A DNA stretch of 64,000 nt from an uncultured Candidatus Saccharibacteria bacterium (lineage in GTDB: Bacteria; Patescibacteriota; Minisyncoccia; Phycocordibacterales; UBA9973): the NCBI GenBank assembly GCA_964646765.1, contig CAZYIA010000001.1, positions 65,334 to 129,333 on the forward strand, in the 5' to 3' direction. The notes under the pieces are model-generated. The model ran no database searches and had not been told where the DNA came from. It saw only the letters and a program-made list of their open reading frames with translations. How positions within the stretch are numbered: position 1 is the stretch's first letter; every line of letters starts with the position of its first letter. A program made the translations under genes and the position numbers. Shown piece after piece: positions 1-12,035 of the stretch.

Positions 1-297
1 TTTAAGCAATTTATAACCAAATCAGTATTACGTCTCCGAGGCGTGCCAAAAGAACAGGCAGAAGCTATGGCTAATGCTTTGGCTGATAATCCTGAACTCG
101 CTGAAGTTTTAAAGAAAATTGAAGCTGATCCTGAACTTAAGGCCTTGATGGAAAAGATCCAGAAAGAGATTGAAGAGAAAACCAAGAACGGCATGGACCA
201 AATGATGGCTTCGGCTGGTGTGATGATGAAGTACAAAAATGAGCTCGCAAAGCACCGCGAAATTCTTGAGCCTTTGATGATGCTCATGCAGCGCTAA
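1..297 (+). CDS. Hypothetical protein, 3' end of a gene that begins upstream of the window (Met-rich C-terminus)
   Basis: Frame 1 is open from nt 1 through the stop at 295-297; the ORF-track GTG at 43 is probably internal. No recognisable motif. Confidence 0.35.
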   Translation, partial: FKQFITKSVLRLRGVPKEQAEAMANALADNPELAEVLKKIEADPELKALMEKIQKEIEEKTKNGMDQMMASAGVMMKYKNELAKHREILEPLMMLMQR

Positions 298-314
298 AGT
301 TCGTTGGCTGTCGT

Positions 315-1313
315 ATGATCAAAAAAATTCTTGTTACTGGAGGAGCAGGTTTTATTGGCAGCCATTTTGTTCGCTACTACTTGTCCGTGCATCCTCGTGC
401 CCGGGTTGTTGTTGTTGATTCGCTCTCGTATGCTGGTAATCTAGAAAATTTAATCGATTGTGCACAAAACCCTAGGTACTCTTTTTATCGAGCGGACATT
501 GGTGATTTTCAAACCATGAGCCGTATTCTGAAAAAAGAGAAACCTGATGCTATCGTGAATTTTGCTGCTGAGAGCGATAATAATAAAGCGATTACCGCAC
601 CCATCGATTTTGCTCGCACTAATGTTTTAGGAACAGCAGTGCTCCTTGAAGCTGCTCGGCTACAAAAAGTGTCGCGTTTTCATCACGTTTCCACCTGTGA
701 AGTATTTGGCGAGCTTTCACTTATCAGCAAGAAAGCTTTCACCGAAAGTTCCCCATTTCATCCTCGTACTCCTTATAATGCTTCGAAAGCCGGTGCCAAT
801 CATGTAGTAGAAAGTTATTTCCATACCTTTGGTTTTCCGGTAACTATCAGTCACGCCTGTAACAATTATGGTTCGCATCAATTTCCTGAAAAGGTTATCC
901 CATTTTTTGTGAGTCGAGCTATAGCAGGGAAACCATTACCGATATTTGCCTCACGAAAAAATAAGCGTGAGTGGATTCATGTGCTTGATCACTGTAAGGC
1001 TATCAATGTGATTCTCGAGGAAGGAAAGATTGGTGAAAGCTATAATATTGGCAGTGGTGTTGAAAAAACTATCGATGAAGTTGCTAACACAGTGCTTTCT
1101 GTCCTCGGTAAGCCACACACGCTCAAAAAAATTATTCCCGACCGGCTAGGTCACGATACTCGATATCTTCTTGATTCGCGAAAGATGCGGAAGCTGGGCT
1201 GGAAACCAGAAATATCTTGGGAAGAAGGTGTGCCAGAAACAATCGCGTGGTATGTAGAGAATAAAAAATGGCTTGCTCCGCTTCTTAAAAAATCCCATGC
1301 CAAACAGTATTAA
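315..1313 (+). CDS. rfbB: dTDP-glucose 4,6-dehydratase
   Basis: N-terminal Rossmann motif TGGAGFIGS, catalytic YNASKAG (YxxxK), and overall similarity to the RmlB family along the full length. Confidence 0.9.
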   Translation: MIKKILVTGGAGFIGSHFVRYYLSVHPRARVVVVDSLSYAGNLENLIDCAQNPRYSFYRADIGDFQTMSRILKKEKPDAIVNFAAESDNNKAITAPIDFARTNVLGTAVLLEAARLQKVSRFHHVSTCEVFGELSLISKKAFTESSPFHPRTPYNASKAGANHVVESYFHTFGFPVTISHACNNYGSHQFPEKVIPFFVSRAIAGKPLPIFASRKNKREWIHVLDHCKAINVILEEGKIGESYNIGSGVEKTIDEVANTVLSVLGKPHTLKKIIPDRLGHDTRYLLDSRKMRKLGWKPEISWEEGVPETIAWYVENKKWLAPLLKKSHAKQY

Positions 1314-3320: not shown

Positions 3321-4322
3321 ATGAAACTTTCCATTGGAATTGTGGGGCTGCCAAACGTTGGTAAATCAACGCTTTTTAACGCCCTCACGAAAAAAAGCGT
3401 GCCAGCAGAAAATTATCCTTTTTGTACCATTGATCCATCGGTGGGTATTGTTCCTGTGCCTGATGAACGTTTGTGGAAACTCTCTGAACTTTCAAAGTCA
3501 GCAAAAACGATTCCAGCGGTTATTGAATTCGTTGACATTGCAGGGCTTGTGAAAGGTGCTGCTGAAGGACAGGGTTTAGGTAATAAATTTTTATCAAATA
3601 TTCGAGAAGTTGATGCCATTTTGGAAGTGGTTCGCGTGTTTGAAGATAAAGACATCATTCACGTTTCCAATAAAGTTGATCCACTTGATGATATTGGTGT
3701 GATTAACTTAGAACTGATTTTAGCGGACTATGAAACCGTTACTAAACGATTGGCAAATCTTTCTCGTGATGTAAAGCGCGGCGACAAAGCTGCGATTGCT
3801 GAAGAAGCAGTACTTAAGAAAGTTGAGACAGTACTTTCTGAATCTCGATTAGCGAGCGAGGCGGTTCTTACTGACGAAGAAAAGATAATTCTTCAAAGCA
3901 TGCATTTACTTTCAGCCAAACCAATTCTCTATGCACTGAATGCTTCAGAAGTTGCCGAGAATGTTATTGATGCAGTAGCTTCGAAAATTCCTGGAAAATA
4001 CGTAGTAATTGATGCTATTTTTGAAAAAGGTTTCGATAAGCTTATTGCAGGAAGTTATGAGCTTCTCGGTCTTGAGACATTTTTCACCACAGGGGAAGAC
4101 GAAAGCCGCGCTTGGACAATTGCTAAAGGTTCTACAGCACCAATTGCTGGGACTGCAATACATACTGACTTCAAAGATAAATTTATTCGTGCTGAAGTAG
4201 TTTTCTGGAAAGATCTGCTTGATGCTGGCAATTATGCCGAAGCTCGCGCAAAGGGGAAAGTACGTACAGAAGGAAAAGAATACATTGTGAAGGACGGTGA
4301 CGTGATTGAATTTAAGATCTAG
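3321..4322 (+). CDS. ychF: Ribosome-binding ATPase YchF
   Basis: GLPNVGKSTLFNALT P-loop, the YchF-specific NYPFCTIDP motif, and a C-terminal TGS domain (KDGDVIEF). Confidence 0.9.
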   Translation: MKLSIGIVGLPNVGKSTLFNALTKKSVPAENYPFCTIDPSVGIVPVPDERLWKLSELSKSAKTIPAVIEFVDIAGLVKGAAEGQGLGNKFLSNIREVDAILEVVRVFEDKDIIHVSNKVDPLDDIGVINLELILADYETVTKRLANLSRDVKRGDKAAIAEEAVLKKVETVLSESRLASEAVLTDEEKIILQSMHLLSAKPILYALNASEVAENVIDAVASKIPGKYVVIDAIFEKGFDKLIAGSYELLGLETFFTTGEDESRAWTIAKGSTAPIAGTAIHTDFKDKFIRAEVVFWKDLLDAGNYAEARAKGKVRTEGKEYIVKDGDVIEFKI

Positions 4323-4326
4323 AGGT

Positions 4327-5142
4327 ATGTTGAAATTTATCTCTCTAAACATAGAAGCTGATAAACATTTTGAACACGCTCTTCCTTTTTTAGAGCGGGA
4401 AAAACCAGATGTTCTTGCTCTTCAGGAAATTTTTGAAGAACATCTCCCACTTATTGAAAAGACAACCGGGATGACCGTGGCCGGATTTTCGCCGATGGCA
4501 CTACAGCCATCATTTCTCGATAAGAGTGGGCCGAAAAATAAAGTATGGGGTGTCGCACTATTCTCGCGATTACCCATACTTGATACGGGAGAATATACCT
4601 ATGTTGGCGACCGTGCTCGTGTGCCTGAATTTGCAAAAGCGATCGATGAAATGAAAGATCCTAATTCATCTAACTATGTTCTTCGCTTTGCTCGAGTACT
4701 GCATGAAGAGGCGACCTATACATTTGCAACAACTCATTTTACTTGGACGCCATTAGGTCTTTCGACAGACTACCAACGCGAACATATACCATTACTTTTC
4801 TCGGCACTCGATACCCTTAAGGATGATTTTGTACTTTCAGGTGATTTTAATGCTCCGCGTGGGTATGGAACCTGGGAACTGATATCCAAGCGATACACTG
4901 ATAATATCCCTGCTGAATATAAGACAAGCATTGATATTACACTTCATCATAATGGTACAACCAGGCCTGACGACTTTTTTGATAAATTGGTTGATGGTTT
5001 ATTTACTACTGGTAAGTATCATGCATCTAACGTAAAACTCATTTCCGGGGTCTCTGATCACATGGCAATTTGTGCAACTATTCAAAAAGATAGGGAGTCA
5101 CAAAAAATATATGAAGCAACACTCGATACAACACACGCTTAA
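4327..5142 (+). CDS. Endonuclease/exonuclease/phosphatase (EEP) family protein
   Basis: LALQEI and SDH motifs typical of the EEP fold. Start ambiguous between TTG at 4306 and ATG at 4327. Confidence 0.6.
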   Translation: MLKFISLNIEADKHFEHALPFLEREKPDVLALQEIFEEHLPLIEKTTGMTVAGFSPMALQPSFLDKSGPKNKVWGVALFSRLPILDTGEYTYVGDRARVPEFAKAIDEMKDPNSSNYVLRFARVLHEEATYTFATTHFTWTPLGLSTDYQREHIPLLFSALDTLKDDFVLSGDFNAPRGYGTWELISKRYTDNIPAEYKTSIDITLHHNGTTRPDDFFDKLVDGLFTTGKYHASNVKLISGVSDHMAICATIQKDRESQKIYEATLDTTHA

Positions 5143-5692
5143 ACAAGGGGGAATTGGTGTGCTGCTTACCGACACTATTTACGGTCTTGTTGGTAAAGCG
5201 CTTAATGAAAAAGCCGTTGAGCGAATATACAAGGTAAAAGGCCGGAAGCCGACAAAGCCGCTGATTATTCTTATTGCGTCACTTACTGATCTCAAAAAGT
5301 TTAAAGTACGACCTGAAGTTTTACGTACCTATAAACATATACTTACAGAAGTTTGGCCTGGACCAGTCTCGATAATTTTACCTGTAGAAAAAAGTGCCCA
5401 AAAGAAATTGCGCTATTTACATCGAGGAACAAACACTCTTGCCTTTCGCATGCCTAAAAAAGTGATACTACGGACACTCCTTAAAAACACGGGTCCGCTT
5501 GTGGCACCCTCAGCTAACCCGGAAGGTCTTTCACCAGCCGAAACGGTAAAAGAAGCCCAGCACTATTTTGGAGAAAAAGTTGATTTTTATCTCTCAGGTG
5601 GCAGAAAGAAGGGAAGTCCGTCAACCCTCATTTCTCTTGCTACTCCTACACCACAAGTTTTACGAGAAGGAGCAGTAAAACTGCGACTTTAA
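5111..5692 (+). CDS. tsaC: L-threonylcarbamoyladenylate synthase (TsaC/YrdC)
   Basis: Aligns to E. coli TsaC (LTDTIYGL, KGRKPTKPLIILIAS, SANPEG). Start chosen at MKQHS, inside the longer ORF-track call. Confidence 0.8.
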   Translation: MKQHSIQHTLKQGGIGVLLTDTIYGLVGKALNEKAVERIYKVKGRKPTKPLIILIASLTDLKKFKVRPEVLRTYKHILTEVWPGPVSIILPVEKSAQKKLRYLHRGTNTLAFRMPKKVILRTLLKNTGPLVAPSANPEGLSPAETVKEAQHYFGEKVDFYLSGGRKKGSPSTLISLATPTPQVLREGAVKLRL

Positions 5693-5734
5693 TCTCAGGG
5701 TTTCATGTGCTAAGGTGGAGAAAACATCTCCACT

Positions 5735-5947
5735 ATGGAAGAGTCAAAAAACCAATCACCAAATTCATTGGTGGTTTGCATAGTTATTCTTAGTTGCTAC
5801 GCGATAACTTTTTTGGGTACTTACTATTTTTGCCGGAACATTCCAGTTGCCATGTATTTTAATTCTTGGCCAGCCATGATTTTGGCACTCATCTTTTTTA
5901 AGTTCACACAAAAAACAGACCACCAAAATAAAAAAGACAGCTTCTAG
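5735..5947 (+). CDS. Small hypothetical membrane protein (70 aa)
   Basis: One or two hydrophobic segments; no conserved motif; ends at a bidirectional hairpin. Confidence 0.3.
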   Translation: MEESKNQSPNSLVVCIVILSCYAITFLGTYYFCRNIPVAMYFNSWPAMILALIFFKFTQKTDHQNKKDSF

Positions 5948-5961
5948 AGAGCTGCTTTTTT
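5931..5961. terminator. Bidirectional hairpin terminator shared by convergent genes
   Basis: Sequence aaaaagacagc-ttctagaga-gctgctttttt: stem with flanking A and T runs, overlapping both stop codons. Confidence 0.35.
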
Positions 5962-6454
5962 ATTTCCCGCCGTTATTCTTTAACTTCTGAACTTCAGCAA
6001 TAAGCGTTGCAAGGGAGTGTTCAATATTGGCGTAGCGATCATGGACAGGTTCCTTATGTGGTTCCTCTTCGCTCATTTCGCCAACATCTTCACCAATATC
6101 TTCCACGTCTTCCTGAATTTCTTCCACGTCTTCCTGAATTTCTTCCACGTCTTCCTGAATATCTTCCACGTCCTCTTGAATTTCTTCAATATCACGCGAT
6201 ACAGCGTGCAGACGACGAGCCTGACGATTTACGGACATCTGAATAAAAATTGAAAGATAAATAGCCTCAAGGGAAACTATGGTGGTTAATACCAAAAGAA
6301 TCTTATCGAGAGGGATGCCCCACATAGCGAGCACAAAAGAAGCCACGAACAGTACCGTGTGAACAATGAGCGATTGAGTCGAACCAACCCATTTGGTTGC
6401 TTGAACTGAAAACCGCTCGATTAAACTGAGGTTTTTTAAGTCGTTCTGAGGCAT
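5960..6454 (-). CDS. DUF1003-family membrane protein with an acidic heptad-repeat insert
   Basis: Two TM helices followed by a QNRQ-containing segment typical of DUF1003, with ~5 tandem EEIQEDV heptads inserted immediately after. Confidence 0.65.
   Translation of the reverse strand: MPQNDLKNLSLIERFSVQATKWVGSTQSLIVHTVLFVASFVLAMWGIPLDKILLVLTTIVSLEAIYLSIFIQMSVNRQARRLHAVSRDIEEIQEDVEDIQEDVEEIQEDVEEIQEDVEDIGEDVGEMSEEEPHKEPVHDRYANIEHSLATLIAEVQKLKNNGGK
6087..6195. repeat. 21-bp in-frame tandem repeat (~4.5 copies) inside the DUF1003 gene
   Basis: Unit atcttccacgtcttcctgaat/ttcttccacgtcttcctgaat repeats with point variants; it encodes the EEIQEDV heptads on the minus strand. Confidence 0.85.
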
Positions 6455-6542
6455 AGAAACGCTCCTAGCTTATATTCGAAAAGTATAGCAGAACAGTCCT
6501 TGGTTAGTCTATACAGTTGTTGCGATTTTTTATCTGAGTACT

Positions 6543-7592
6543 ATGATGAGGGTATTATCCGCTTATACATTATCTATGGATCAAAATCAGACTTCGTCAC
6601 GACTTTCGCCAAAATTCTTCTTCCTCTCCCTTGGCGTTTTAATTACCCTTATTTGGAGCGCCTCATCGTTTCTCCTTTTGTTTTTTGAAACATTGACTCA
6701 AAAGTTTCCTGACGCTTTAAATGCCGTATACCAGTATGGATATTTTTCTGGAAACTTCGACAGTATCCGCAGTGGCATCGCTTCTCTTATTATTGTTTTT
6801 CCAGTATTTCTCGTACTCTCATATTTTTGGAATAAGGCTTCGGAAGGTGAGCTTTCTCGAGTTGATACCACTATTCGTAAATGGATGATTTACCTCGTGC
6901 TCTTCCTTGCGAGTCTTTTGATTGTTATTGACCTTGTGACATTAGTTCGTTACTTCGTTTCTGGTGAAATAACCATCCGCTTCATTCTGAAAGTGTTAGG
7001 AGTTCTTGTGACAGCGACGCTGATTGGTTTTAACTATATTAGTGAACTTCGCTTTGAAAAAATTACTCCAGAACATCGCAAACTCTACCGCGGTGCTCAT
7101 GGAGCTATTGCACTTGTTCTCGTCTTCGGTTTGATTGTTTGGAGTTTTATCGTTATTGGTTCACCAAAAACCCAGCGGGCGCTTCGTTTTGATGATCGTC
7201 GCGTTCAAGACCTTCAGTCTATTCAGTGGCAAGTAATTAGTTATTGGCAGCAAAAAGAAAAATTACCTGAAGCGCTTACGGAACTAAATAATCCAATTTC
7301 TGGCACAGTTATTCCTATAGATCCTGAAATGGATAAAGGTCTTACTTATGAGTATAAAAAAACAGGTACTCTTTCATTTGAGCTTTGTGCAACCTTTAAT
7401 CTTCCAATGCCAAAAGGTTGGATAGAAACAAGTGGTGGGGGAATTGCCTATCCAGCTCGTGATGTTGCTGTCTCGTATCCGTATCCAGGTGGAGCAAATG
7501 ATTCATGGGATCATCAAGCTGGCCGGACCTGTTTTTCTCGCACGATAGATAAGGATCTCTACCCACCATACCCAAAAGCCGTTAAAGAATAA
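6543..7592 (+). CDS. Hypothetical multi-pass membrane protein (DUF5671-like N-terminus)
   Basis: 4-5 predicted TM helices in the N-terminal 200 aa, then a soluble C-terminal domain; no catalytic motif. Confidence 0.45.
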   Translation: MMRVLSAYTLSMDQNQTSSRLSPKFFFLSLGVLITLIWSASSFLLLFFETLTQKFPDALNAVYQYGYFSGNFDSIRSGIASLIIVFPVFLVLSYFWNKASEGELSRVDTTIRKWMIYLVLFLASLLIVIDLVTLVRYFVSGEITIRFILKVLGVLVTATLIGFNYISELRFEKITPEHRKLYRGAHGAIALVLVFGLIVWSFIVIGSPKTQRALRFDDRRVQDLQSIQWQVISYWQQKEKLPEALTELNNPISGTVIPIDPEMDKGLTYEYKKTGTLSFELCATFNLPMPKGWIETSGGGIAYPARDVAVSYPYPGGANDSWDHQAGRTCFSRTIDKDLYPPYPKAVKE

Positions 7593-7593
7593 T

Positions 7594-8376
7594 ATGTTTG
7601 GGAATTTCGGAGAAAAGCCTTCCCAGGAAGTTTCGAAGTCTACAGAAGAGCAGTTAGTGGCTTTTGCTCGCACACCATTGTCTGATACAGAAGTTTTGGC
7701 TGGTCTGGAACAAGCAGGTGCTTCTTCTATAAGTCAGTTGCCGACATTGTTTCAAAAAATGATTGGCACAGAACATCTATATCGCGTGCAGGGTGTTACG
7801 TTTGGTGATGTTGTAGAACATACCATGGTCTTTACCCTCAATAACCAAAAGACAAATACATCACACGCAGAACTTGAGTTTGAGCAAGATGTTGAGAATG
7901 GTGTTTGGAATATGCGCCATCGGTATGTAGCAACAAAAGAGCAAGGTCTGAGCGGCTCTGATTTTCTGAAGAAAGCCGAAGAATATTTTGCTATTCTTAA
8001 AAAACATCAAAAAGTTGATCTCCGAAAGTTTGTCGCGCACGCTTCTCAGCCAAGTGTTATGCTGTGGCTCGAAAAAAATGGTTTCAAGGAGTCAGGAGTG
8101 AATTTCAACCACTTGTTTGATTACGAGAAAGGAACAGTAATTCCAGCCCCAGGATATTTTTTTATTGAGCTCAAGGATCCGAAGGTTCCCATCGAAAAAG
8201 ATCCCTACTTGGTTAATGGTGATTTTTTACTTGACCCAGAGTTTGCCAAACTTCGTGAAGGACTATCATTTGATCTTGCTGATAAACGTCCATATCTTGA
8301 AAGCATTGAAGTACTCAATAGTCTGATTACAAAAGGCTATGTTCCGCGACTCTCCTACGAGAAAAATGTGCTATAG
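7594..8376 (+). CDS. Hypothetical protein, possible GNAT-fold acetyltransferase-like
   Basis: Central segment RHRYVATKEQGLSG...WLEKNGFKE resembles GNAT motifs A/B (degenerate); sits immediately upstream of leuS. Confidence 0.35.
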   Translation: MFGNFGEKPSQEVSKSTEEQLVAFARTPLSDTEVLAGLEQAGASSISQLPTLFQKMIGTEHLYRVQGVTFGDVVEHTMVFTLNNQKTNTSHAELEFEQDVENGVWNMRHRYVATKEQGLSGSDFLKKAEEYFAILKKHQKVDLRKFVAHASQPSVMLWLEKNGFKESGVNFNHLFDYEKGTVIPAPGYFFIELKDPKVPIEKDPYLVNGDFLLDPEFAKLREGLSFDLADKRPYLESIEVLNSLITKGYVPRLSYEKNVL

Positions 8377-8387
8377 TTCGAAAATCT

Positions 8388-11300
8388 ATGGCACAAAAAC
8401 CGAGTGAGTATAACCACCTCGCCATTGAGAAAAAATGGCAGAAAGAGTGGGAGAAAAAGAAAGTCTATAAAACTCTAGATCCCGGGAAAAAGAAAAAGCA
8501 TTACGTGCTTGATATGTTCCCGTATCCTTCTGGAGCCGGGCTTCATGTGGGCCATCCTCGTGGCTATATTGGCAGCGATGTATACGCGCGTTTGAAGCGC
8601 ATGCAAGGTTTTAACGTCCTTCATCCAATGGGCTACGATGCTTTTGGCCTCCCAGCTGAACAATTTGCCATTGCTAACAAAATTCACCCTCGCCAAGCCG
8701 TAGAAAAAAATGTCGCGACTTTTGAACGCCAACTTGGCATTATGGGCCTCTCGTATGATTGGTCGCGAAAAGTAAACACGACCGACCCCGCCTACTACAA
8801 ATGGACGCAGTGGATTTTTCTGAAACTCTACGGTGCTTGGTACGATACTGAAAAAAACAAAGCCCGACCAATAGAAGAACTGGTAAAAATTTTTGAAAAA
8901 AAGGGGAGTGCTGGAGTGAAAGCTGTAACTAATTATAGCGGCAGTTTTTCCGCAAGTGATTGGAAATCATTCTCAAAACTTGAACAACATAAGATTCTAA
9001 TGGAGTTTCGCTTAGCCTACGAAGGCTATAGCGATGTCAATTGGTCGCCATCAATGGGTACCGTACTTGCAAACGATGAAGTCCTAGATACTCCCAATGG
9101 TCCTGTGGCGGAACGTGACGGTAAGCCAGTAGAAAAAAAGCGTATGCGCCAGTGGTTTATGCGCATAACTTCTTATGCTGAGCGATTACTTGAAGGTTTA
9201 GATGGGCTTGATTGGAGCGAACATATAAAAGAAATACAGCGAAACTGGATTGGAAAAAGCGAGGGAAGCTTGCTCACCTTTTCACTGAGTACAAAAAGTG
9301 GTACGCAGCCGAAAAAGATTTTGGTTGGTACTCGAAATGAAGCAAAGTTCAAAATGGTAAAGGCTTGTTTGCCTAAGCTCTCGGGTATTGAAATCGTTAG
9401 CCTTAATGATATTGCCGCAGTTGATGATAGCGCCCTTGTTGAAGGATCAGACTATGAAGAAAATGCTCGAATGAAAGCCGAGTTTTACTTTAAGAAAACC
9501 GGCATTCCTACTATTTCAACCGATAATATTTTTTGGTTGGAAAAGTGGAAAAAGAACGATGGTGTGATGGTGCACATGCGCAAGGAAGCTAATCCGAAGA
9601 GTGATCGAGCAACAGATGAAGAAGTTGTTGCTTTCCTTAAAAAATGGGTAAAGAGTGTTGGTGGTAGCTCACGCGCGCATTTTCGTTATGCGGTTGCTTT
9701 TGCCGACACGCATGGCGTTCGAAGCTTTACTTCAAACCAGCGTGAGTATGTACTTCAAGGAAAACAGTCAAAGAAATTTTGGCCAGGATATCCAACTGAA
9801 TCATTACTTATTGATGTTGTGACTAAAGAGTATAAGGGTAGTCAAAAAGATTCTCTTCGCTATCAAAAACTAATTAAAGATTTTGCCCGTGAACTTCCAA
9901 TGTGGTTGGGGGAACTTTCACCAGTTTCAGTATTTACCACACGTGCGGATACTCTTGCCAGTGCTTTCGCAGTAATTCTCTCTCCTGAGCATCCTCTCGT
10001 AGCGAAACTACTCCCGCTTACTGAGAATGCTTTAGAGGTGAATGCGTATATACAAGAAGCAGGGAAGAAAACCGAAGAAGATCGCACAAATACTGAAAAA
10101 GAAAAAACGGGAGTGCCGCTCAAGGGGATTACAGCAACAAATCCATTAACCAAAGAAGTACTTCCAGTATGGGTTGCTGACTTCGTGCTCGCTCAGTATG
10201 GTACTGGAGCAATTTTTGCCGACATGCACGATGAACGCGACTTTATGTTTGCCCAGAAATATGGATTGCCAATGCGACAGTCAGTTGCTCCTCATTTTAT
10301 TGACCCGAGAAATCCACCACGACCGGGACTTCCCACAGTTGCTCGCCGCACAGTTCATGTCATTCTTCGCCGACCAAGTGATGATGCGTACTTAGTACTT
10401 AATTGGAAAGGTGATGTTTGGAAGGGTCAGAACCCACATACATTTATTGTTGGAGGAATTGAAGAAGGAGAAGATACTGTTCAATCAGCACAAAGAGAAG
10501 TTGTCGAAGAAACAGGCTACCAACATATTAGATATATCTCAACGATCGGTCCAGAAATACATGCTGAATTTTGTGCCGCGCACAAAAATGAAAACCGGTA
10601 TGCTACAACCCAAGTTCTTCTATTTGAATTAGTTGATGAAACTCAAGCCTCGGTAGCACAAGAAGAATTAGATAAACACGAGTATCTATGGCTTCCAAAA
10701 GCTGAAGTTGGAAATTATTTAAATATTTCTGAAGATACATTTATTTGGAAATGGTTTATCAGCGGACAGCAATCATTCACTGATGAAGGTATCCTGATTA
10801 ATTCAGGAGAATTTAATGGACTCAGTTCAGAAATTGCTCGCCACAAAATTACAGAAGCAGTTGGGGGATCGTGGGTAACTAAATACAAAATGCGTGACGC
10901 TGTGTTTGCTCGCCAGCGGTACTGGGGTGAACCAATTCCGCTCGTTCATAACGCCGACGGTACAATTACGCCAGTTCCAGAAAAGAAATTACCACTGACG
11001 CTGCCGAACGTTAAAAGTTATGAACCAACCGGTACTGGCGAGAGCCCTCTAGCAGCAGTTTCATCTTGGGTTAAAGGGGGATACGAAACAAACACTATGC
11101 CGGGTTGGGCGGGTAGTTCATGGTACTTCCTGCGCTACATGGATCCCAAAAACAGCAAAGCTTTTGCAAGTGATAAGGCGCTGAAATACTGGCGCGATGT
11201 TGATATGTATGTTGGCGGTGCTGAGCATGCTACGGGACACCTTCTCTATGCTCGGTTCTGGCATAAAGCGCTCTATGATTTAGGATACGTACCAACAACT

Positions 11301-12035
11301 GAACCATTTAAAGCACTTCGTAACCAGGGAATGATTGGCGGCGCTGATGGAAGAAAAATGAGTAAGCGATGGGGAAACGTGGTAAATCCGGATGATGTTG
11401 TGGCAACCTACGGTGCTGATTCACTGCGTGTTTTTGAGATGTTTTTGGGACCATTCGATTCACATTTGCCATGGTCAACAGAAGGGATTATTGGTTCCCG
11501 ACGATTTATTGAAAAAGTATGGCGATTATCTCAAAAAATAATTATTGCACGCGCAACGAGTACTGATGAAAGTGCGGAAAAAGTAATCCATAAAACAGTA
11601 AAGAAAGTAACCGAAGATATTGAGAGCTTTAGTTTTAATACCGCGGTCTCATCGATGATGATTTGTGTGAATGAACTTGAACGAGCGACACAGGTTTCAT
11701 TGAAAGATTTCTCTCTTCTCCTTCGAGTGCTTGCTCCGTTTGCTCCGCATATTACTGAAGAAATCTGGCAATTAGTAGTGAAAGAAAAGGGAAGCGTACA
11801 TCATGCGTCATGGCCAACCTACGATCCTAAGAAACTGGTTGAAGCCACGGTTACCATTGTTGTTTCGATAAACGGTAAACCACGAGCAGAAATTAGTGTA
11901 GAAACTGGGGCATCTCAAGAAATAGTGGAAAGTATCGCCCAAAATGATCCACGGATACAGACTCATCTGGCAGGTAAAAAAATAACTCGGGTTATTTACG
12001 TCCCAAATAAACTGGTCAATCTAGTCATAGTCTAG
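8388..12035 (+). CDS. leuS: Leucyl-tRNA synthetase with inserted Ham1/ITPase-like and NUDIX domains
   Basis: HVGHPRGY (HIGH), editing-domain TTRADT, KMSKR, and C-terminal VIYVPNKLVNLV all align to E. coli LeuRS. Two extra in-frame blocks (aa ~301-512 and ~636-800) bring the length to 1215 aa versus ~860. Confidence 0.95.
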   Translation: MAQKPSEYNHLAIEKKWQKEWEKKKVYKTLDPGKKKKHYVLDMFPYPSGAGLHVGHPRGYIGSDVYARLKRMQGFNVLHPMGYDAFGLPAEQFAIANKIHPRQAVEKNVATFERQLGIMGLSYDWSRKVNTTDPAYYKWTQWIFLKLYGAWYDTEKNKARPIEELVKIFEKKGSAGVKAVTNYSGSFSASDWKSFSKLEQHKILMEFRLAYEGYSDVNWSPSMGTVLANDEVLDTPNGPVAERDGKPVEKKRMRQWFMRITSYAERLLEGLDGLDWSEHIKEIQRNWIGKSEGSLLTFSLSTKSGTQPKKILVGTRNEAKFKMVKACLPKLSGIEIVSLNDIAAVDDSALVEGSDYEENARMKAEFYFKKTGIPTISTDNIFWLEKWKKNDGVMVHMRKEANPKSDRATDEEVVAFLKKWVKSVGGSSRAHFRYAVAFADTHGVRSFTSNQREYVLQGKQSKKFWPGYPTESLLIDVVTKEYKGSQKDSLRYQKLIKDFARELPMWLGELSPVSVFTTRADTLASAFAVILSPEHPLVAKLLPLTENALEVNAYIQEAGKKTEEDRTNTEKEKTGVPLKGITATNPLTKEVLPVWVADFVLAQYGTGAIFADMHDERDFMFAQKYGLPMRQSVAPHFIDPRNPPRPGLPTVARRTVHVILRRPSDDAYLVLNWKGDVWKGQNPHTFIVGGIEEGEDTVQSAQREVVEETGYQHIRYISTIGPEIHAEFCAAHKNENRYATTQVLLFELVDETQASVAQEELDKHEYLWLPKAEVGNYLNISEDTFIWKWFISGQQSFTDEGILINSGEFNGLSSEIARHKITEAVGGSWVTKYKMRDAVFARQRYWGEPIPLVHNADGTITPVPEKKLPLTLPNVKSYEPTGTGESPLAAVSSWVKGGYETNTMPGWAGSSWYFLRYMDPKNSKAFASDKALKYWRDVDMYVGGAEHATGHLLYARFWHKALYDLGYVPTTEPFKALRNQGMIGGADGRKMSKRWGNVVNPDDVVATYGADSLRVFEMFLGPFDSHLPWSTEGIIGSRRFIEKVWRLSQKIIIARATSTDESAEKVIHKTVKKVTEDIESFSFNTAVSSMMICVNELERATQVSLKDFSLLLRVLAPFAPHITEEIWQLVVKEKGSVHHASWPTYDPKKLVEATVTIVVSINGKPRAEISVETGASQEIVESIAQNDPRIQTHLAGKKITRVIYVPNKLVNLVIV

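Follow-up and report, generated by a model that had tools for sequence, protein, structure and literature searches.

How a whole enzyme of a different superfamily has come to lie inside the editing domain of a leucyl-tRNA synthetase (LeuRS), and what it might do there, is the question raised by the leuS gene of an uncultured Candidatus Saccharibacteria bacterium. The gene lies in a 64,000-nucleotide stretch of contig CAZYIA010000001.1 (assembly GCA_964646765.1, positions 65,334 to 129,333 of the forward strand), referred to here in its entirety as the window and numbered from its first nucleotide. Aminoacyl-tRNA synthetases (aaRSs) are among the best-mapped of enzymes, and new biology such as editing, signalling and antibiotic immunity has come to light again and again through their accessory domains. 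An initial annotation of the window proposed that a domain related to the Ham1/RdgB inosine triphosphate pyrophosphatases (ITPases) interrupts this LeuRS in frame, and knew of no ITPase fold within an aaRS. The interruption is borne out at residues 304-512 (nucleotides 9297-9923, against 9288-9923 as first noted), and full-text literature searches agree with the second point, having returned no description of a LeuRS or any other aaRS with a Ham1 or NUDIX insert. The Ham1-in-LeuRS architecture is real, recurrent and apparently undescribed.

Results

A Ham1-like domain in the first hairpin of CP1

The insert on its own matches the Pfam family PF01725 (Ham1p_like) with 40.4 bits (cutoff 22.5, E=3.8e-10), over profile positions 1-130 of 186 and residues 311-448 of the protein, a match that is outcompeted, and hence unreported, when the whole protein is scanned. 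Alignment by hhalign of a profile of the insert family with canonical Ham1 sequences covers domain residues 4-183 at a probability of 99.75% (E=3e-27); in the E. coli RdgB sequence of that set, the first 82 residues match the PDB alignment. An AlphaFold model of the insert, built from an 18-sequence family alignment (A2), has a predicted local distance difference test score (pLDDT) of 92.7 and a predicted template modelling score (pTM) of 0.86. In a Foldseek search of the PDB with this model the top 32 matches are all Ham1/ITPase proteins, aligned over ~205 columns with template modelling (TM) scores of up to 0.75/0.79, the values obtained with S. aureus Ham1; the matches include the M. abscessus dITP/XTP pyrophosphatase, E. 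coli RdgB, MJ0226, human ITPA and KomBC. These searches uphold the Ham1-like identity first assigned and enlarge its extent: residues ~309-458, as initially delimited, are indeed Ham1-like, but hhalign and the fold search carry the likeness over a whole fold of ~205 residues. Membership of the Maf/YjjX group was considered and rejected, Maf structures reaching a TM of only ~0.4 to the insert model. Judged by profile matches and predicted fold, the insert truly belongs to the Ham1 superfamily, within a divergent and uncharacterised subfamily. No second Ham1/RdgB gene was found in the 64-kb window.

Comparison by phmmer with Thermus thermophilus LeuRS (1h3n) resolves the window protein into five collinear blocks and reveals three insertions (Table 1), confirming the insertion point of the Ham1-like segment. 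The segment had been placed just upstream of CP1; it does adjoin the editing motif, standing four residues ahead of VFTTRADT in place of a three-residue hairpin turn, but the alignment to 1h3n and the predicted strands put it inside CP1, at the turn of the first CP1 beta-hairpin. Model confidence has its low points at the two linkers (pLDDT 69 at residues 301-310 and 76 at residues 501-510), and the Ham1-like domain should, on this model, form a tethered excursion out of the CP1 hairpin.

The host protein scores 878 bits against TIGR00396 (leuS_bact, equivalog cutoff 548), and Pfam recognises class I catalytic, LeuRS editing and anticodon-binding domains together with an unexpected NUDIX domain. 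A full-length AF2 (AlphaFold) model (residues 1-1200, from a 62-sequence alignment; pLDDT 87.1, pTM 0.72) matches bacterial LeuRS crystal structures with target-normalised TM scores of 0.71-0.82, and the window LeuRS, as modelled, should be functional.

Several features of the protein go beyond the initial annotation, namely the NUDIX insert, a 57-residue insert in the catalytic domain and the probable origin of the Ham1-like domain as an upstream neighbour of leuS. The 57-residue insert is predicted to be partly helical and occurs only in 'type A' LeuRS backbones. The ZN1 cysteines are replaced (residues 218-245; NWSPSMGT versus NWCPKCQT), 'type B' relatives retaining the Cys ligands, and no leucine-specific domain (T. 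thermophilus 578-637) is present at residues ~984-990, in the region of window positions 11330-11360.

Predicted site residues retained in the insert

The motif matches first quoted for the insert are real: it carries GTRNEAK, ENARMKA, AHFRY and, where RdgB has DDSG, STDN. In RdgB, K13, K53 and R87 make up the triphosphate site (PMC3899018). Residues K320, K363 and K399 (with R398 adjacent) align with this triad, K320, K363 and R398 being invariant in 36 family members and K399 present in at least 90% of the 18 A2 sequences. D379, the counterpart of D69, is likewise invariant, in keeping with the earlier remark that the key lysines and one Asp of DDSG are kept; E352 is invariant too, but falls one position off E41 in the alignment. 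RdgB E41, D68 and D69 are the acidic residues with metal-binding or catalytic roles in that enzyme, as reportedly described by Savchenko et al. in 2007. The insert also has a GYPxE version of the FGYDP motif, and W383, E385 and H396 are invariants peculiar to its family. The SHR motif of RdgB is absent in 104 of 113 size-filtered relatives of ~200 residues drawn from representative-library and profile searches, the wider subfamily sharing the insert's losses of D68 and SHR.

Embedded copies recur at two insertion sites

The same fusion is found in about 25 protein clusters and 29 metagenome loci; counted by independent contigs, which come from several studies, it is seen more than 50 times. 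The embedded form is present in four species-representative genomes, three labelled Saccharibacteria and one Patescibacteria, and the reading frame is uninterrupted in every embedded example examined. Insertion site 1, used in the window, accounts for about 20 protein clusters and for the three Saccharibacteria species-representative genomes. Site 2 lies ~28 residues upstream, between ...YADRLDRDLD and ...YLEKIKxQQKNWIG. Across 31 metagenome loci of the tight family defined below, recovered in a scan biased by its own search patterns, the insert lies at site 1 in 19 and at site 2 in 10. At three site 1 loci a serine hydrolase stands in tandem with the embedded Ham1-like domain, preceding it in L011 and following it in L020 and L021. 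Public records of such proteins are named, where they are named, 'leucyl-tRNA synthetase' or 'class I tRNA ligase family protein', and public databases already list such proteins with both Pfam domains precomputed.

A candidate split LeuRS (P0128, serine hydrolase-Ham1-CP1-C-terminus) was rejected: the real open reading frame (ORF; L011, 4251-8015) encodes an intact LeuRS of 1254 residues with both modules in slot A, the name used below for site 1. Its database gene call (5001-8015) starts 250 codons late, and automatic annotation of multi-insert LeuRS genes is unreliable. Record P0131 (206 residues; ENA contig, 1069 bp) joins part of a LeuRS to one half of a Ham1-like domain and a tail of class II (LysRS-like) type; this has the look of a chimeric assembly, and family records on short contigs need checking. 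Elsewhere, the Thr-rich editing motif is degenerate in one LeuRS lineage, which has, for instance, MYNSVPQTYCAETF against VFTTRPDT, and whose Ham1-like module is either free, overlapping the leuS start (L008), or inserted at site 2. To judge by these motifs, an editing-defective CP1 may here co-occur with the Ham1-like module.

Free-standing and fused relatives precede leuS

A search of 1.84 billion representative proteins delimits a tight family of 10 clusters (E<1e-30), separated from ordinary Ham1 proteins by a score gap from 167 to 96 bits. Its free-standing members, of ~205 residues, are encoded directly upstream of leuS in all five readable loci, and a fusion of serine hydrolase and Ham1-like domain takes the same position in another (Table 1). 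The insert matches the free ORF up to its last residues and, at the other end, to within a few residues of the start codon. The gene order ychF-(DUF5671)-Ham1-leuS recurs (L007, L008 and the contig of P0276), and the window shares its synteny (ychF, DUF5671, a 260-residue ORF, leuS) with relatives that have the free gene. The 260-residue ORF was considered as a displaced module and rejected, having neither a Pfam match nor similarity to any fetched protein or locus. In the wider SHR-less Ham1 subfamily, fusions to NUDIX (in both orders), GNAT and HD domains were observed, together with one to an IS200-like Y1 transposase domain.

Conservation and probable exchange of the inserted module

Identity to the window copy is 54-82% for the Ham1 insert, 45-92% for the LeuRS core, 51-81% for CP1 and 24-44% for the NUDIX insert. 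Between 24 embedded and 12 free or fused copies, ~43 positions are invariant, including all putative site residues, T315, N317, K320, E352, K363, D379 and R398 among them, and only ~7 are specific to the embedded form; overall, embedded and free copies are only 45-50% identical. Since the invariant positions are common to both, the embedded domain and the free protein are under the same constraint.

The history of the module was tested with pairwise identities among 19 full-length carriers (171 pairs, which are not independent of one another). Spearman's rho was 0.78 between the N-terminal and C-terminal LeuRS cores and 0.26-0.37 between CP1 and the two cores, against 0.00 between the Ham1 insert and the N-terminal core and -0.07 between the insert and the C-terminal core. 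In neighbour-joining trees, which are without bootstrap support, free and hydrolase-fused forms are basal, the inserts of the two main LeuRS backbone types are intermixed, and the backbone trees show carriers interspersed with non-carriers. On these sequence comparisons, the Ham1 module seems to have been captured repeatedly or exchanged by recombination, and not simply inherited by vertical descent.

Further modules in Patescibacteria LeuRS

The NUDIX insert lies in the C-terminal part of CP1 and occurs in roughly 107 of the best 120 LeuRS relatives; NUDIX-bearing LeuRS is, by this count of similar sequences, widespread in Patescibacteria. The NUDIX insert has a much higher rate of evolution than the Ham1 insert, and matches other LeuRS NUDIX inserts with E-values of 1e-25 to 1e-29. 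A common lineage with the NUDIX domain of the Ham1-NUDIX fusion proteins found no support, the best match reaching only E=3.5e-4 over 82 residues. When 127 relatives were mapped onto a bare LeuRS of 868 residues, at least five insertion slots were apparent: slot A holds Ham1-like, Ser_hydrolase, GNAT, HAD, ASCH or unknown domains, another holds NUDIX in nearly all relatives, and further slots hold a second NUDIX, ASCH, HAD or unknown domains. Two of the unknown slot domains are ~111-139 residues long, and HAD or ASCH may occupy different slots in different proteins.

Table 1. Features of the window LeuRS and its gene neighbourhood, with related loci and proteins (residues refer to the window LeuRS; nucleotides to the window unless a locus is named).
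Feature	Residues	Nucleotides	Strand	Remarks
leuS ORF		8388..12035	+	1215-residue bacterial-type LeuRS with three insertions
HIGH motif (HVGH)	53-56	8544-8555	+	intact
57-residue insertion	149-205	8832..9002	+	in N-terminal catalytic domain; by alignment to 1h3n
NWIGKSEG and first CP1-hairpin beta-strand	286-293; predicted 290-302	9243..9296	+	N-terminal flank of insertion site 1
Inserted segment	304-512 (~209 residues)	9297..9923	+	linker STKSGTQP, Ham1-like domain, linker LSP
Ham1/ITPase-fold domain	305-509	9300..9914	+	equals a free-standing family member, start to stop
Predicted site residues of insert	T315, N317, K320, E352, K363, T378, D379, R398/K399, F432, G467-Y468-P469...E471			K320=RdgB K13; K363=K53; T378 for D68; D379=D69; R398/K399=R87
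CP1 editing-domain core	513-636	9924..10295	+	PF13603, 148.8 bits
Thr-rich motif TTRADT	517-522	9936-9953	+	intact
HDERD	614-618	10227-10241	+	intact; conserved Asp (HDxRD)
NUDIX insertion	634-794 (Pfam 653-774)	10287..10769	+	PF00293, 39.4 bits, cutoff 21.1
Nudix box GGIEEGEDTVQSAQREVVEETGY	689-711	10452-10520	+	intact; fits GX5EX7REUXEEXGU
KMSKS motif (KMSK)	990-993	11355-11366	+	intact
Collinear block 1	7-148			T. thermophilus 3-144 (phmmer)
Collinear block 2	206-303			T. thermophilus 145-239 (phmmer)
Collinear block 3	513-633			T. thermophilus 243-362 (phmmer)
Collinear block 4	795-983			T. thermophilus 375-577 (phmmer)
Collinear block 5	991-1214			T. thermophilus 638-876 (phmmer)
ychF		3321-4322	+	upstream of leuS
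Exo_endo_phos		4306-5142	+	upstream of leuS
Sua5/YciO		5072-5692	+	upstream of leuS
DUF5671 membrane protein		6543-7592	+	upstream of leuS
260-residue ORF		7594-8376	+	between DUF5671 gene and leuS, where relatives have the free Ham1-like gene
Locus L001				free Ham1-like gene upstream of leuS, one small ORF between; PF06821 serine-hydrolase gene just upstream
Locus L002				free Ham1-like gene directly upstream of leuS
Locus L007				free Ham1-like gene directly upstream of leuS
Locus L008				free Ham1-like gene directly upstream of leuS, 8-nt overlap
Locus L012				free Ham1-like gene directly upstream of leuS, overlapping
Locus L013/L014				two contigs, one locus; serine hydrolase-Ham1 fusion gene (P0130; PF06821) directly upstream of leuS
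Site 2 examples				L006, P0127, P0132, P0133 and 10 metagenome loci
Degenerate Thr-rich motif lineage		L008 6611-9046		also L028, L032, L034, L037
LeuRS slot examples		L007 6639-10154		also P0018, P0019, P0021, P0031, P0048, P0089, P0093, P0104, P0123
SHR-less Ham1 fusion proteins				P0247, P0267, P0269, P0156, P0189, P0211, P0243

Discussion

On the evidence of conserved residues and predicted fold, we put at about even the chance that the insert is an active nucleoside triphosphate (NTP) pyrophosphatase module that has the activity of its free ancestor, with an altered base specificity, and that LeuRS serves as its carrier. The domain would have been captured from an operon partner encoded upstream of leuS and later exchanged or re-inserted among leuS genes. 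The embedded module would work as the free ancestor does, most probably as a Mg-dependent enzyme converting an NTP to the nucleoside monophosphate (NMP) and pyrophosphate, an activity suggested by the fold together with the retained Lys/Lys/Arg-Lys triad, the Glu and the second Asp, while the loss of the SHR motif and of the first Asp of DDSG makes a change of base specificity probable. As a carrier, LeuRS would fix 1:1 expression and co-localisation, a role that would fit the loops of Patescibacteria LeuRS, loaded almost always with NUDIX and sometimes with HAD, ASCH, GNAT or serine hydrolase domains. The activity would benefit LeuRS, for instance through the sanitising of nucleotides in the vicinity of an enzyme that consumes ATP; this is the least certain step, suggested by the tight and long-lived link to leuS.

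Several observations weigh against this proposal. RdgB D68, the first Asp of DDSG, is replaced by Thr, Met or Leu in the family, and no SHR motif is present in the insert, the hhalign alignment stopping before SHR; the loss of both could mean weakened catalysis or a substrate other than an NTP. The insert reaches only 27-37 bits against RdgB equivalog cutoffs of 145-272 (TIGR00042, NF011397, NF011398), and it is on account of these unmet cutoffs and the missing SHR motif that we assign it to a divergent subfamily and do not treat it as an RdgB orthologue. Sequence-based searches of the PDB with the insert or its profile cover only the first ~75-80 residues of solved Ham1 proteins, which is why the Pfam match is confined to part of the domain, and they additionally give spurious designed-repeat matches; Pfam misses the C-terminal half, which has diverged too far, and it was hhalign and the fold search that recovered it. 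Members further out in the subfamily do not adjoin leuS at the two loci checked (L009 and L010), and a leuS linkage of the whole SHR-less subfamily was ruled out there. The history, too, is read from unsupported trees and non-independent pairs, as stated above. Finally, ordinary house-cleaning does not obviously require so strict a link to leuS, which hints at a more specific coupling.

This strictness would allow for a module that is an accessory dedicated to LeuRS, a proofreading or immunity domain acting in cis on non-cognate aminoacyl-adenylates, diadenosine polyphosphate (ApnA) by-products or natural toxins that mimic Leu-AMP, a reading we regard as rather unlikely. Aminoacyl-AMP and Ap4A could in principle serve as the NMP-X substrate in ITPase chemistry, in which water attacks the alpha-phosphate, and the loss of the base-recognition motif SHR together with the family invariants W383, E385 and H396 suggests a changed substrate. 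The link to leuS is strict and old, extending over five free loci, both contigs with the serine-hydrolase fusion and more than 50 embedded contigs, whereas distant subfamily members do without it, and 4-8 residues separate the insertion from the Thr-rich editing motif. The companions of the module can be read in the same direction. MccE/RimL-type GNATs detoxify aminoacyl-nucleotide antibiotics, and a GNAT occupies slot A in P0123. Valacyclovir is a nucleoside analogue esterified with an amino acid. The serine hydrolase that shares the slot and upstream position of the Ham1 module belongs to PF06821, one member of which, RBBP9, is reported to be a valacyclovir-activating enzyme (Shenoy et al. 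2020, as cited in PMC7730578). Set against this, the triphosphate triad is fully kept, which is unexpected for a substrate without beta and gamma phosphates; decay of CP1 does not accompany the module consistently, TTRxDT and HDxRD being kept in most carriers; and NUDIX, HAD, ASCH and HD partners would fit generic nucleotide house-cleaning equally well. The broader proposition that Ham1, serine-hydrolase, NUDIX and GNAT modules together form a LeuRS-dedicated quality-control or immunity device in cis, destroying such nucleotide species on the enzyme by which they are made or bound and spreading between leuS genes as an exchangeable cassette, seems to us more doubtful again.

The remaining alternatives give the domain no catalytic role or deny that the fusion exists. 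Since CP1 swings between aminoacylation and editing states, a domain inserted there might bind a non-canonical or signalling nucleotide without turning it over and allosterically tune CP1 movement, and with it aminoacylation or editing. The loss of one metal-binding Asp would suit such a sensor, and there is a precedent among the structural matches in KomBC, the effector complex of Kongming defence, which contains the Ham1-type protein KomB and is activated by dITP (PMC13454610). However, free members with the same invariants cannot act allosterically in cis, the remaining residues of catalytic type (E352, D379 and the Lys triad) are invariant, and the lower-confidence linkers suit a flexible tether and not a rigid allosteric joint, so that we think a sensor distinctly improbable. 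It is still harder to regard the domain as a neutral passenger or decaying pseudo-enzyme captured by accident in a tolerant hairpin. At least five slots filled by many unrelated domains do speak of high structural tolerance, and the NUDIX insert is fast-evolving (24-44% identity), but the Ham1 insert matches the LeuRS core in conservation, retains its ~43 invariant positions in copies only 45-50% identical, has an unbroken reading frame throughout the examples examined and was captured or kept at two sites; we consider this reading very unlikely. An artefact, by which a chimera, mis-join or frameshift falsely fused a Ham1 gene to leuS, is effectively refuted. The assembly is of metagenome type and the related record P0131 looks chimeric, but the identical protein occurs in NCBI and Logan contigs, the same in-frame architecture is found in more than 50 independent contigs at 50-80% identity, the two halves of LeuRS are collinear and fold into a complete LeuRS, and composition does not break at the junctions (GC 0.40-0.45 throughout). 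The chimera raised in the initial annotation as a possible objection thus finds no support in GC content or in the independent contigs.

The components are of kinds already known, an enzyme of the Ham1 superfamily and an aaRS that bears an accessory domain, but the evolutionary trail is unusually informative, forming a readable series that leads from an upstream operon partner to a domain inserted in frame at either of two sites, in some cases together with a serine hydrolase. It belongs to a broader and apparently unreported pattern in which Patescibacteria LeuRS is a multi-slot carrier of NUDIX, HAD, ASCH, GNAT and hydrolase modules. Should the modules merely ride along, they would offer a natural example of domain-insertion tolerance and of operon-to-fusion evolution in reduced genomes; should they act on substrates of LeuRS, they would represent a new mechanism of synthetase proofreading or self-protection built on the ITPase fold. 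Either way, clonable constructs and a free-standing control protein are at hand for tests.

Comparison with known systems

The window LeuRS resembles its counterparts from T. thermophilus (1h3n, 2bte) and E. coli (4aq7) in a collinear catalytic core, CP1 motifs, anticodon-binding domain and C-terminal domain, and differs from them in its insertions of 57, 209 (Ham1-like) and 160 (NUDIX) residues and in being without the leucine-specific domain and the ZN1 cysteines. The insert shares with RdgB/Ham1/ITPA proteins (1k7k/2q16, 4bnq and human ITPA, 2j4e) the same fold over the whole ~205 residues (TM 0.6-0.79), GTxNxxK, counterparts of the triad, a Glu near E41, D69, the base-stacking Phe and GYP..E/D. 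It departs from them in the replacement of D68, the absence of SHR(G), its own invariants W383/E385/H396 and scores below the equivalog cutoffs; moreover, it is embedded in or operon-linked to another enzyme, whereas those proteins are stand-alone and unlinked.

Physical union of a Ham1-family pyrophosphatase with a nucleotide-consuming enzyme has a parallel in potyvirids, where HAM1 is covalently joined to the RNA-dependent RNA polymerase (NIb-HAM1) and the joined form improves viral fitness (PMC8893687). That union is an end-to-end junction in a polyprotein, with a canonical active ITPase and a polymerase as partner, in contrast to the internal insertion in a synthetase described here. KomB (PDB 9v0g, 8zsg; TM 0.67/0.75 for 9v0g_A) is likewise a Ham1 fold within a larger complex, but its partner is a SIR2 NADase and the KomBC complex is activated by dITP; the window has no defence context, and KomB is no closer to the insert than are ordinary ITPases. 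Among synthetases, the NCBIfam family NF040702 (isoleucine--tRNA ligase, N-acetyltransferase domain-containing), which matches the window LeuRS weakly and through its synthetase part only, also joins a class Ia synthetase to an unrelated catalytic domain. Both its domain and its host are different, and the modules of the window LeuRS are internal, belong to a system of several alternative slots and include one that can be traced to a neighbouring gene.

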